DNA of 62,440 bases, the filler included, from Rhabdomonas costata (Eukaryota): the NCBI GenBank assembly GCA_019059605.1. It is 36 parts of 36 records of this genome, joined end to end, with 100 filler letters (N's around TTAATTAATTAA, not from the genome) between each part and the next. Parts side by side here need not be neighbours in the genome. Positions count along the whole stretch, not along the records: positions 59,066 to 60,704 come from JAHMHO010011556.1; 35 more parts are not named here. One strand, written 5' to 3'. The position numbers and the translations under genes are program-made. Below the pieces are notes generated by a model. The model was given only the letters and a program-made list of their open reading frames with translations, did no database searches and was not told where the DNA came from. This document shows, piece after piece, positions 38,230-60,704 of this stretch. Positions within the stretch are counted from its first letter, which is position 1, and every line of letters begins with the position of its first letter.

Positions 38230-38800
38230 GGAAGGGCCAACACCGGTTTCAGCGTGTATGCCGTGGGTGATCATGGGTGCTTGGTGTGTGTGTGTGTGTG
38301 TGTGTGTGTTGCGAGGTGGAAGCGTGTTCTTTCGGTACTTTGGGTGTCTTGTGCAGGGTTGGTGTTGGTGTCTGGGGTGGATGCTGTGGATGTGAGTTAA
38401 ATGTGGGCGTGTGCTGGCTCATTCGTATGTGAGGTTGCACCCATCTGACTTTGGTTGTAGGTTGTTTGTTGCAGGGTTTGGTGTTAACGGTGGGTTGGTT
38501 GCTGTGTAGTTCGGCGAGGCTGGGTTCGGAGTTGGTGTGCAGATGGTGGGTATGGGTGTGGGTATGGGTTCTTCTTCTTGGGTGTTTCCTCGGCCTTCCA
38601 TGTTTCTGCTTACCCATAGGTGCGTATCGGTGTTGGTATGGTTGACTGCGTTGCCTGTGGGGTTGATGATCGGTTCGGTGTTTCTTCGGCTTTAGTGGGT
38701 CTTGACAGCGGTAACTTGGGGCAACGGTGATGTCTGTGTTGTGTGCTTCTCTGGTGGGTTGTGAGGTGTGGGCTTGTGCAGGTGTTTGTTGTCGTCTGTG
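38230..38800 (+). pseudogene. G+T-skewed mitochondrial-type mosaic: nad5 motif fragment followed by a degenerate nad1-like sequence
   Basis: 38231-38254 encodes EGPTPVSA, the invariant nad5 motif, and then diverges. The frame 38396-38764 has weak nad1-like segments (RLHPSD..LFVAGF..GG..AV*FGE and FPR...WLTALP). The G/T skew is the same as in the nad4 contig. Confidence 0.45.
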
Positions 38801-39474
38801 TTTTTCAGGAGTTTCCTGTTGTTAATTCACTCCCAGGTCGTCGTAAGTGTTGTGCTTCTTCATTGGTAAACACCCAAGCCAATCTATTCTAATGCAACAG
38901 TCATGTCCTGCTGTAAAGCAGTTTCAGACTTTCACTTCGGCATCAACAACAGTATGGAAAACATGTTCGACTACACCAACACTGATGACCGAGATCATCA
39001 AAGCCCAAAGTTCTGAGAAAGACTTTTCTCCGGTGACGAATGCTCGTCACGAATTATCGCCGAAACGGTGATTAACAGGACGTCGCAAGCTGTCGCAAGC
39101 TGCCGCGAGACGTCGCGAACTGTCGCAGGACTCGGCGACGCATGATCTTGCTTAGTGGTACTCACTGAAAAGATCTTGATTATATATCAAAAATAATTTA
39201 AAATATATGATTAAATAATCATAACTTTATTAACACCACATGCAAGTTTATTTAATAGCCAATAAAAAGGATACATTATTAAATAATAAATAAGAATGTA
39301 GACGAAAATCCTATTTTCCATGTAAAATCAGGTTCAGGTGCATTACATTCAGCAGTAGTAAATACACGATGAAATCTATCAAAATAATTTATTTTATTTC
39401 GTCTGACTATTTATAATTGTATAATAATTACAAATTCAAACATAAACTAGAATAAATAGTATTCTATCATTAAA

Positions 39475-53680: not shown

Positions 53681-53859
53681 TGCATGCAAAAAGAAGTCGA
53701 CAAACACTCAAAATCACTCATCAACAAAATTCCTTGATTTCAGATTCAGACAAAAACACNNNNNNNNNNNNNNNNNNNNNNNNNNNNNNNNNNNNNNNNN
53801 NNNTTAATTAATTAANNNNNNNNNNNNNNNNNNNNNNNNNNNNNNNNNNNNNNNNNNNN

Positions 53860-55074
53860 TTTCGGGCGCCCCGAGGAAGGATCAATCGTCAACTTTGGAT
53901 GACGAATCGCGGCAACTGCAATGCAATCCAGCAGGGTTACCGAAGGTAACATCGGGTATCCCTCCGACTCGACTCCACGAAAAAAAGCAACCCTGGGAGA
54001 ATATATCCCACCGATCTCAGGCAGGGGATAAAAAACGTCACTTTCTTCGTTGAGGAGATTCGCCGTGGCTCGGAAATAGTCACTTCGGTAGTGAAGGTTC
54101 TCCTCCTGCGCTCCGTCGCCAGATTGAAACCCGCCCCCAGGGCTGGTGGCACTGGCCATATTCAGCACACAAGGTCTGCACCCCTCGTTTTGAAGACGGA
54201 TAGCTGCCTTCACGCAGTCCATGTTCCAAACCTCAATTTTCGGAGGTACGGCTGAACTCTCTCCAAGCACTGGCGGAGGACAAACCTCGTCGAAAAGAAC
54301 AGAATCTTTGGCTGGACTTCGAGAATTGTCCGCAAGCTCAGGATAGCCTGGATCCTGCTCGCGGCACTTTTGCAACGTTTGCGCCATGATAATCACCCGC
54401 ATGCTGTGACATGCAGCGTTATTCTGAAGGGCCTGGTAAAAGCGAAACCAACCAACCCATCGGGAGGCACAGGGGAAGAATTGTATGATATCACCCAGTC
54501 TCAGTGGATTCTCCTCAAGACCCGCCAGGAAGGCGGTTTCCGCGTCCACCGAGTCCCGCTGACATTCCTGAAAATGCACGGGCAAAGCGCTAGGAAGTAC
54601 TGGGGTGCTGCACATTGGGCAAGGCAACAATTGATCCGGGTTTTCCTGCGGGGTCAAATTCAGGTTCTCTCCCCCAGCGGCCTCGCTCTCGCTGTCACTC
54701 TGGATGACTTCTGCGCCTTCATCATCATCTTCTTCTGAAAGCTCTTCTATGGAGCGCGCTTGAGGCAAATCATTCCGAGCAATACCGTCGAAGACCTCGG
54801 ATCCACCCACGGAGCTTGAAGAAGGTCCGCCTTGTTCCAGCGAGGAGCTGTGCGAGCCATGAATAAACTGGCACCGAGTTCCATTTCTGCAACCCAAGGG
54901 GGTGTTGAAGTACTTGCACGGAACCTTTGAGGGACCTTCGCCTGTGCTGCTAGAGGAGCCACACTTGGGAATGGAAAAGCTAAGTGAACCGTGCTTGAAA
55001 GGACATCGGGATCCATCTCTGCAGCCCGAAGAGGTGCTGAAATACCTGCACGGAGTCTTTGATTTGTCGGCCAT
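53860..55074 (-). CDS. Intronless gene: two CCCH zinc fingers + C2HC (UBZ-like) finger + microbial-type PARG macrodomain (TIGR02452/DUF2263-like), 3' truncated
   Basis: CRYFSTSSGCRDGSRCPFKH and CKYFNTPLGCRNGTRCQFIH are CCCH fingers. CPMC...LPVHFQEC is the C2HC finger. VLNMASATSPGGGFQSGDGAQEENLHYRS contains the PARG GGG-x6-QEE signature and is followed by GIYSPRVAFFR and CIAVAA. Confidence 0.92.
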
Positions 55075-55595
55075 GTTGCAAACAATAGTCAACAAAGGGC
55101 AAGGCGATCACTCCTTCATAAGAGGGTGTGTGCAAGGGTGTGCGGCCGTAGGGAACATTATTTTCTGCATCACTCCCAGTAAATGAGCACACAGGCCGCT
55201 TTGCTCACGCAAACGGAACATAAAACTATTCAACGTGCGACACTCCCATGATCTAGGTAGGACGAAAGCTTCTCACGACAGCCCAATTGCGCACCCTCAC
55301 CCATACCTCCAGGGCTGTACAAAATCCTTTTTTCCTTTGATGATACTCTCCCTTTGAGGATAAGAGAGACCAGAGGTCAACAATGTCGGGTCTCGTGTCA
55401 CAAGCAAGCTCGCTGACTGCTGCGCTGCACGACGCGTATACCCAAGCCCGCACCTCCTTGCTGACACACCGGTGCTTTAAGCAACGAGCCACAACNNNNN
55501 NNNNNNNNNNNNNNNNNNNNNNNNNNNNNNNNNNNNNNNTTAATTAATTAANNNNNNNNNNNNNNNNNNNNNNNNNNNNNNNNNNNNNNNNNNNN

Positions 55596-59065: not shown

Positions 59066-60434
59066 AGACCAACGAATACCCAGCACACACTTCCACCCAG
59101 AACAACACAGTACACGGAAACGCAGCATTAGCCAAGCACAAGCACAACAGCACTGAACCCACACCCGTAGCACTACAAAGCCCTCGCAACCCCACCAGCA
59201 ACCGTTGATTAGCCACCTCACACAGCAAGCCCACACAAAGGAACATCAAGCCCGCAATCAAACTATGACCCCACATGCCTACGAGCAACACGACCAACGA
59301 CACCCCACCGAGACACAGCAACGCCAAACCCGTCATATGCACCACCGACTACAACGCCACCCACCGCTTCGAATCCACAGCACCCAGCAAGCTAACCGAC
59401 AACACACACCCCGACGTCACCAAGAACCCTGCACACACCACGAGCCACGCACAATCCATAGCACCACAGAAGCCACATACCCAAACCAACACCACCCAAC
59501 CCAACTTCAACCCCACACCAGCCAAGAGCACCGAACCCACCGTAGAAGCCTCAGAATGCACCTTACCCAACCACACATGCAACGGAACCACAGAAAGCTT
59601 CACCAACCCACCCACCACCATCAGCAACGCACCACACGACACCTCCACTGCACCCACCTCACCCCACATCGCAACCCATCCACTGACATCCACCGAACCC
59701 AACCCACACCCCTGCAACATCAAGCAACCCGTCACCATCGCAACCCCTGACACCACGCCCTACCCACACAGCAATCCAACCGCAGCAGCCCAACCCTTCA
59801 AACTCCCCGACCCACCACCCGACAGCAACACCCCAGGACGCAAACACAACAAACCAACCAAAGGCACGTTCACCAGTTCGAAGCACAGCAACAAGCACAC
59901 CACATCTTGACACCACAGAAATCCCATCGAAGCCACGCACAACACACCTACGCACACATCGGCCCCCAAACCCTACCCCATACAGCGATTCTACAGCAAG
60001 CACAAACCACCAAGCAATACCGTCACACACCCACAACCCGACAGCAACACCCCAGGACGCAAACACAACAAACCAACCAAAGGCACGTTCACCAGTTCGA
60101 AGCACAGCAACAAGCACACCACATCTTGACACCACAGAAATCCCATCGAAGCCACGCACAACACACCTACGCACACATCGGCCCCCAAACCCTACCCCAT
60201 ACAGCGATTCTACAGCAAGCACAAACCACCAAGCAATACCGTCACACATGCAAACGCCCACGCACCTACGAACCCGGCACCGATCGAACCCACACATGCT
60301 CCACACCACGCCAGCCACGCACTCAACCCTGCAACCCCCATATGCAACGCAACACCACCCGAACCAAGCCCACCTGACACAGACGAAACCAACGCACTAG
60401 AACCCACGACACCACCCAAGGAAGACCGGAGCAA
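59066..60434 (-). CDS. nad4: Mitochondrial-type NADH dehydrogenase subunit 4 with in-frame TAG codons (start uncertain, first ATG at 60341; 3' truncated)
   Basis: A single frame carries, in the correct order, D......CFELVNVPL, VKLSVVPLHVWLGKVHSEASTVGSVLLAGVGLKLG, DSKRWVAL*SVVHM, MWGHSLIAGLMFLCVGLL....QRLL..LRGL and LANAAFPCTVLFWVE. Confidence 0.93.
59810..60248. repeat. 219-bp in-frame tandem duplication inside nad4
   Basis: 59817-60029 is identical to 60036-60248. The period is 219 bp, or 73 codons. Confidence 0.95.
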
Positions 60435-60704
60435 TCACGGTAGCTGACCGACACCAACACCCACACCACTGTAGAGAAGCGAACCCGCCCAACTAGGGTC
60501 ACCGACCAAAGGAAAACCCACCACACCAAGGATCACGCCGGAGGCTTCCACAAACAACACATCACCCACACGCAAAGCACCGAGGATCACACCGAAGTCA
60601 TCTTGGAGACACGAACCCTGCACCACAAGTAACGTCAACGAACCGGCACCACACAACAAGGAATCCCCACACCCAACCCCAATGCACTCACTCGGCTGAA
60701 ACAG
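60435..60704 (-). CDS. nad4L: Probable nad4L (5' truncated), in the same frame as nad4 and ending at TGA 60435-60437
   Basis: LQDDFGVILGALRVGDVLFVEA aligns without gaps to the nad4L consensus LDD..G.LFAL.VLTVAAAES, with DD, AL, V, V and the conserved E at identical spacing. Confidence 0.55.
   Translation of the reverse strand: MFQPSECIGVGCGDSLLCGAGSLTLLVVQGSCLQDDFGVILGALRVGDVLFVEASGVILGVVGFPLVGDPSWAGSLLYSGVGVGVGQLP

Follow-up and report, generated by a model that had tools for sequence, protein, structure and literature searches.

In-frame TAG codons at tyrosine positions in a partial mitochondrial nad4 gene of Rhabdomonas costata and in its environmental relatives

RESULTS

The nad4 frame

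The stretch of DNA analysed here (the window; 62,440 nt, from the fragmented assembly of the euglenid Rhabdomonas costata) consists of 36 contigs of 1633-1647 nt each (about 1636 nt), apparently ordered by size and joined by separators of the form N44-TTAATTAATTAA-N44. One of these contigs (59066..60704) carries on its minus strand a partial mitochondrial nad4 gene whose frame is crossed several times by TAG, and it is the meaning of these codons that we report on. A preliminary description, made from the sequence alone, had proposed that UAG is read there as tyrosine (Tyr), with RNA editing as the alternative. The whole contig is G/T-rich DNA, annotated here as mitochondrial, with artificial N/TTAATTAATTAA spacers at both ends; its minus strand has 43% G, 36% T, 13% C and 8% A, an outlier in a window whose other contigs are balanced in composition, and the skew runs along its entire length, leaving no nuclear-like flank.

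Translated on the minus strand from 60704, the contig reads as one frame of 546 codons without a frameshift; among them are six TAG and one TGA, and TAA is absent. The nad4 frame lies wholly within it, and the part that follows the TGA (59066..60434, minus strand) comprises 456 codons, counting the duplication described below, with six TAG, no TAA, no TGA and a single codon of the standard Tyr form TAY (TAC or TAT). Third positions in these 456 codons are 54% G, 30% T and 10% C. Our recount agrees with the preliminary description in all these respects: the six TAG and where they fall, the absence of TAA, TGA and frameshifts, the lone TAY codon and the G bias of third positions. The sole TGA (60435..60437, minus strand) is in frame, and upstream of it the frame runs open to the end of the contig over 90 further codons, none of them Met; if the coding region reaches that far, this TGA would be read as tryptophan (Trp), as in code 4. 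No start codon can be placed on the contig, and relatives show no conservation in the N-terminal region. The gene is also incomplete at its other end, where the contig stops at 59066, ~75-90 residues short of the expected C-terminus.

The identification as nad4 in the preliminary description was borne out. The Pfam domain Proton_antipo_M (PF00361) covers residues 202-448 of the 456-codon frame (59091..59831, minus strand), scoring 75.9 bits (E 3.9e-21) where the cutoff is 21.5. The 20 matches to solved structures at E <= 1e-5 are without exception ND4, Nad4, NuoM or NDH chain 4, which identifies the gene as nad4 rather than nad2 or nad5; the top match is Euglena gracilis ND4 (8iuf_N4, chain N4 of PDB 8IUF; E 3.8e-29), from a published E. 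gracilis structure (He et al. 2024, PMC10884005). Wherever source-given names are listed for the protein-search matches, they are subunit 4/M or 'complex I subunit 4 family'. The core block K..P.H.WL.K.H.E..T.GS..LA...LK.G is present, and 16 of its residues (K369, P374, H376, W378, L379, K381, H383, E385, T388, G390, S391, L394, A395, L399, K400 and G402) are invariant across 15 aligned sequences.

TAG sites and tandem duplication

The six TAG codons, all on the minus strand, reduce to four sites. Site 1 (60210..60212) and site 2 (60192..60194) recur as second copies at 59991..59993 and 59973..59975, both from a tandem duplication at 59810..60248 (minus strand); site 3 (GLLCG-TAG-GVVSG) lies at 59760..59762 and site 4 (KRWVAL-TAG-SVVHM) at 59349..59351. 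The duplication consists of two units of 219 nt, or 73 codons, in frame, and was called exact; Tandem Repeats Finder reports a 219-nt unit in 2.0 copies with 99% matches and no indels. The preliminary description had already seen that two TAG codons are duplicated, and since two of the six are copies, we count four independent TAG sites. The lone standard Tyr codon in the 456 codons, a TAT at 59076..59078 (minus strand), is aligned to a TAG in one of the environmental relatives introduced below (L003, column 810).

Tyrosine columns in homologues

Homologues were collected by a search of 5.8 billion proteins and by a metagenome contig scan that gave 29 loci with DNA. The nearest TAG-free relative of the window gene is one of these loci (L001), identical to it at 202 of 318 aligned columns. 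Each of the four unique TAG codons falls on a TAC codon of L001, and these make up four of the five L001 Tyr in the 318 columns (hypergeometric P 1.2e-8). Three further loci (L002, L003 and L007), diverged metagenome relatives with a G/T skew like that of the window contig, have TAG at the same places: at all four sites in L002 and in L003, and at sites 1, 3 and 4 in L007, where site 2 is GGG.

More remote sequences give a second view of the same columns. Among ten TAG-free homologues more distant than L001, Tyr is present at site 1 in six of the nine with a residue there, at site 3 in 9/10 and at site 4 in 8/10, and the remainder at sites 3 and 4 is phenylalanine (Phe; 1/10 and 2/10, respectively). 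Three of the four unique TAG sites are thus dominated by Tyr in distant homologues, and at sites 1, 3 and 4 Tyr fits far better than Trp. For site 3 this is what the preliminary description had claimed when it placed that TAG on a conserved Tyr. For site 4 the description was right about the conserved motif and wrong in putting the TAG merely next to the usual Tyr: the codon lies exactly on the Tyr of 8iuf_N4, whose motif is KRWIALYS, and euglenid-type nad4 has the general form KRW[VI]A[LMV]YS. In plant ND4 the Tyr stands one position earlier, which explains the discrepancy.

Chance expectation

The A-poor composition of this DNA makes long open frames cheap; a second minus-strand frame has a 245-aa run without a stop. 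Composition predicts, per 456 codons, 5.7-7.7 TAG, 3.0-5.7 TGA and 0.8-1.0 TAA. Position-specific shuffles put the probability of finding neither TAA nor TGA at 0.015, and mononucleotide shuffles put it at 0.0006. The argument of the preliminary description that stops all of one type point to a sense codon is therefore weak on its own, given the composition prediction and the 245-aa run. The weight of the case is in the positions where the TAG codons fall and not in their number.

Environmental relatives

Codon tallies in the aligned nad4 genes separate TAG users from the TAC user. The window has four TAG and one TAY, L002 five and zero, L003 11 and zero, and L007 ten and four, against one TAG and six TAY in L001; standard TAY codons are nearly gone from the TAG-using sequences. 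Pairwise ratios of nonsynonymous to synonymous substitution (dN/dS) among the window gene, L001, L002, L003 and L007 are 0.18-0.30, with dS >1, which marks these as working genes under purifying selection and not as decaying copies. Several proteins called on other contigs break off exactly at these sites. P0004, P0011, P0125 and P0134 end at KRWVA[LV], that is, at site 4; P0124 likewise ends directly before the site 4 codon; and two more, P0123 and P0127, stop immediately ahead of site 3, the type of stop being deduced for all of these.

A maximum-likelihood tree of nad4 homologues places the window gene, L001, L002, L003, L007, P0002, P0004 and P0011 in one clade (99/99), with the TAC-using L001 nested inside it beside the window gene and L003 (100/99). 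Strong compositional heterogeneity was flagged in these data, and the clade may therefore be partly an effect of composition.

Pfam searches of the three forward frames of L001, L002, L003 and L007 (translated with TAG=Y, TGA=W and TAA=X) found nad4 only and no second gene. Scans of viral contigs and of genome contigs for relatives gave 12 and 13 pattern matches, respectively, none of which was confirmed.

The relatives differ in how nad4 is laid out. In L002 (1-5285) and L007 (1-6767) kilobases of A-poor, G/T-rich DNA without a Pfam match in any forward frame flank the gene, an arrangement suggesting that recognisable genes occur only once in several kb. L003 (~1100-2500) has its nad4 split between conserved blocks by one in-frame insertion of ~230 codons rich in G, S and V, and L007 (~540-1750) has two long in-frame insertions of the same G/S/V-rich kind between conserved blocks; the insertions contain additional TAG and neither TAA nor TGA. 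In L001 (~1609-1690) the reading passes from frame 0 (the FWVELL block) to frame 1 (the GLWVW block) with several codons missing. A sequencing error may account for this, as may a true frameshift or damage to this copy.

Transcript-level evidence

The R. costata protein set was predicted from the transcriptome (PMC8219788), and one of its members, P0003 (EukProt EP00906_Rhabdomonas_costata_P015078), matches the last 90 residues of the contig's nad4 at 90/90. P0003 begins at the first Met, 5 codons past the 59349 TAG, despite in-frame Met codons upstream. ORF callers choose such a start when the transcript holds a stop just before it, and this indirect clue implies that UAG would still be present at 59349 in the assembled transcript. 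Among the nad4 matches P0003 is the only R. costata protein; a TAG-free R. costata nad4 was found among the protein-search matches in neither the longer nor the shorter length class, a second indirect point for UAG persisting in the RNA, and the 20 matches among shorter proteins included no further R. costata fragment. An exact look-up of the open reading frame between the 59760 and 59349 TAGs (window 59352-59738) showed it to be absent from the protein collection.

The 3′ end of nad4

Where homologues have a called end, it lies 52-63 residues past the GLWV-type motif. In-frame TAA occurs in none of the five nad4 sequences (the window gene, L001, L002, L003 and L007), and whole frames of 800-2255 codons contain 0-1. 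TAG codons follow the GLWV motif at +49 in L001, at +51 in L003, at +43 and +60 in L007, and at +10 and +73 in L002; those near the end of nad4 are not homologous between lineages. P0003 continues for 216 residues past GLWV without any standard stop. Translation of nad4 may end at a UAG whose meaning depends on context or at a stop created by 3′ tailing, or the protein may have a long tail.

Other contents of the window

Only three stop-to-stop open reading frames of at least 250 aa were found across the whole 62,440-nt window. A 431-aa open frame at 53815-55107 (minus strand) has 99% identity over 94% of its length to the R. costata protein RCo038838, which has PF10021 and PF18044 and is called a TIGR02452-family protein by some sources; together with the match to P0003, this identity confirms R. 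costata as the origin of the window. The contig at 38230-39870 begins with ~600 nt (38230-38830) that share the G/T-rich make-up of the nad4 contig and contain a (GT)n run; a balanced stretch follows, and then ~740 nt of A/T-rich sequence (A 41%, T 33%). It has no Pfam match in six frames and no Rfam match; it may be a chimera, or else mitochondrial DNA without a coding function. Within the window no mitochondrial gene besides nad4 was found, and a search of all of it against Rfam gave no match.

DISCUSSION

UAG as a probable tyrosine codon

We conclude that the contig is very probably a genuine fragment of the R. costata mitochondrial genome that holds most of nad4 (complex I subunit 4), and that UAG is read in it as Tyr, the four unique TAG being ordinary Tyr codons. 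TAG behaves as a G-ending synonym of TAY, favoured by the drive of the strand towards G and T. Third positions of 54% G, 30% T and 10% C make four TAG and one TAT about what synonymous use predicts. The view of the preliminary description that UAG is probably a sense codon, with Tyr as the candidate, is thus upheld by the placement of all four sites on L001 TAC and their retention in three relatives under purifying selection, and PMC8219788 concurs.

Such a reading would require that a tRNA-Tyr reach the mitochondrial ribosome and pair with UAG there. That tRNA is presumably encoded in the nucleus and imported, as we suppose because no tRNA gene lies in the window, and the mitochondrial release factor of RF1 type would presumably be inactive on UAG. 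The mitochondrial genomes of euglenozoans are not known to contain genes for tRNAs.

The assignment has been published before for R. costata. Soukal et al. (2021, Sci Rep 11:13070; PMC8219788) recovered cox1, cox2, cob and part of nad4 on contigs of this organism, found that translation with code 4 left many UAG where homologues have Tyr, and concluded that the mitochondrion probably uses UGA=Trp together with UAG=Tyr, a code that they likened to that of Clathrina clathrus and some labyrinthulids. They also noted that the tyrosyl-tRNA synthetases of R. costata are unrelated to those of euglenophytes, and reported no indication of RNA editing or introns in the mitochondrial genes. The statement in the preliminary description that UAG=Tyr is not known from euglenozoans was accordingly wrong, and our reading adds nothing for R. 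costata itself. The two accounts are alike in organism, in the partial nad4, in UAG at Tyr positions and in UAG=Tyr with UGA=Trp without editing. They differ in that the nad4 of PMC8219788 combines two assembly nodes and was curated manually, in that the 219-nt duplication is not mentioned in the passages of that paper on which we draw, and in that the environmental relatives and the missing TAA terminators do not feature there. In the full-text literature on Rhabdomonas and UAG we found PMC8219788 alone, and literature from 2021 on about reassignment in euglenid mitochondria added nothing.

Alternative explanations

Several observations weigh against reading UAG as Tyr, or at least against a clean reassignment. 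The column of site 2 depends on the alignment, with Tyr in several distant homologues in one alignment (A1) and in none in the script alignment, and site 3 is occupied by Trp in the relatives P0002 and P0011. A tabulation of residues at TAG columns, which the preliminary description had suggested, comes out cleanly for the window (4/4 on L001 Tyr) and less so for the relatives, where the ten distinct TAG columns with an L001 residue hold Tyr in five, Phe in two and Asp, Leu or Met in three; the non-aromatic residues lie in variable stretches. The number of TAG codons matches the composition-only prediction. The 73-codon duplication is unique to the contig, absent from L001, L002, L003, L007 and every protein homologue, and the contig is therefore not a clean gene copy. 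ARAGORN found no tRNA gene in the whole 62-kb window. Finally, the TAG codons near the expected C-terminus in L001, L003 and L007, where TAA is missing, mean that UAG might also terminate.

The duplication and the TAG count are also the points that speak for a dead copy whose TAG codons are true stops, be it mitochondrial DNA inserted into the nucleus, a fragment in decay or a chimera from amplification, together with the fact that the R. costata DNA was whole-genome amplified before assembly (PMC8219788). We nevertheless consider a dead copy extremely unlikely. The TAG sites recur in three diverged relatives with dN/dS of 0.18-0.30, all four coincide with L001 Tyr codons (P 1.2e-8), the G/T skew continues throughout the contig with no nuclear-like flank, no frameshift occurs in 546 codons, and a transcriptome-predicted protein matches at 90/90 residues; on the Tyr coincidence and the dN/dS values (with dS >1), a pseudogene or nuclear insertion was rejected. 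As for the duplication itself, its absence from the relatives and the whole-genome amplification make us lean towards an artefact of amplification or of assembly, or else a variant copy without function, outside the working gene. It is also very unlikely, in our judgement, that the TAG codons are changed at the RNA level as in diplonemids, by A-to-I editing to UGG (Trp), which was the alternative offered in the preliminary description, or by some other change to UAY. Substitution editing of nad4 is known in diplonemids, the sister group (PMC4889940, PMC7049700), and the Trp at site 3 of P0002 and P0011 would suit it; in R. costata, however, PMC8219788 reports no sign of editing across these genes, and the start of P0003 just past the 59349 TAG implies that the stop is retained in the assembled transcript. 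Tyr suits sites 1, 3 and 4 far better than Trp, and a change to UAY would turn G into a pyrimidine, which no editing type that we know of does. The gene is moreover contiguous on DNA, with 546 codons on one contig, as it is in L001, L002, L003 and L007; a module structure of the diplonemid kind was rejected on account of this single contig (~1.4 kb).

UAG could, again, be dual and depend on context, standing for Tyr within genes and for a stop near the 3′ end of the mRNA, or its read-through could be incomplete, in either case without a clean reassignment. This would account for the lack of in-frame TAA (none in five nad4 sequences, 0-1 in frames of 800-2255 codons) and for TAG in L001 (+49), L003 (+51) and L007 (+43/+60) about where homologues end, 52-63 residues past GLWV. 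We hold it to be improbable all the same. P0003 runs 216 residues beyond GLWV, so that no terminal TAG is seen in R. costata; the TAG codons of L002, at +10 and +73, are off the expected end; and positions near the end are not homologous across lineages. With TAG at ~2% of codons, as estimated from the codon tallies, one would fall in a 17-codon window by chance in about one-quarter of cases.

Comparison with known systems

The ND4 of E. gracilis (8IUF N4) resembles the R. costata protein in having the euglenid motif KRW[IV]ALYS, with its Tyr exactly at the 59349 TAG. It differs in make-up, being rich in I, L, N and Y, as is typical of A/T-rich genes, whereas the R. costata nad4 is G/T-rich. 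E. gracilis uses code 4 (UGA=Trp), and there UAG is a stop (PMC8219788). The mitochondria of Clathrina and Labyrinthulea, which are unrelated lineages, have tRNA genes of their own, whereas none was found in the R. costata window. As cited in PMC8219788, the calcareous sponge C. clathrus and some Labyrinthulea share mitochondrial UAG=Tyr with R. costata, and Clathrina also has UGA=Trp; unlike R. costata, Clathrina in addition reads CGN as Gly. Diplonemids are likewise Euglenozoa, and their A-to-I and C-to-U editing of nad4 (PMC4889940, PMC7049700) would enrich the mRNA in G and U. Their genes, however, are modules on separate chromosomes that are joined as RNA, whereas nad4 of R. costata is contiguous over ~1.4 kb with no editing reported.

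Implications

A bolder proposal, which we put forward tentatively and regard as rather unlikely in its full form, is that the mitochondrial coding strand of the Rhabdomonas-like euglenid clade has lost every DNA-encoded codon dedicated to termination, with UAA practically absent, UAG read as Tyr and UGA as Trp. Its nad4 would then end at a context-dependent UAG near the end of the mRNA or at a 3′ end that RNA processing creates, and the code would be shared by a wider uncultured environmental clade. Modestly new in the present work are the wider environmental clade with the TAG trait, the TAC-using lineage nested in it and the lack of a visible TAA terminator, all of which we offer as leads and not as results.

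Mitochondria very rarely combine UAG=Tyr with UGA=Trp, and within Euglenozoa this code has been reported for R. costata only. The TAG sites shared by its relatives, the proteins that break off at them, the nested TAC user and the absence of TAA may together be a seed for the study of how such a code originates under extreme strand bias and of how mRNAs are terminated under it.

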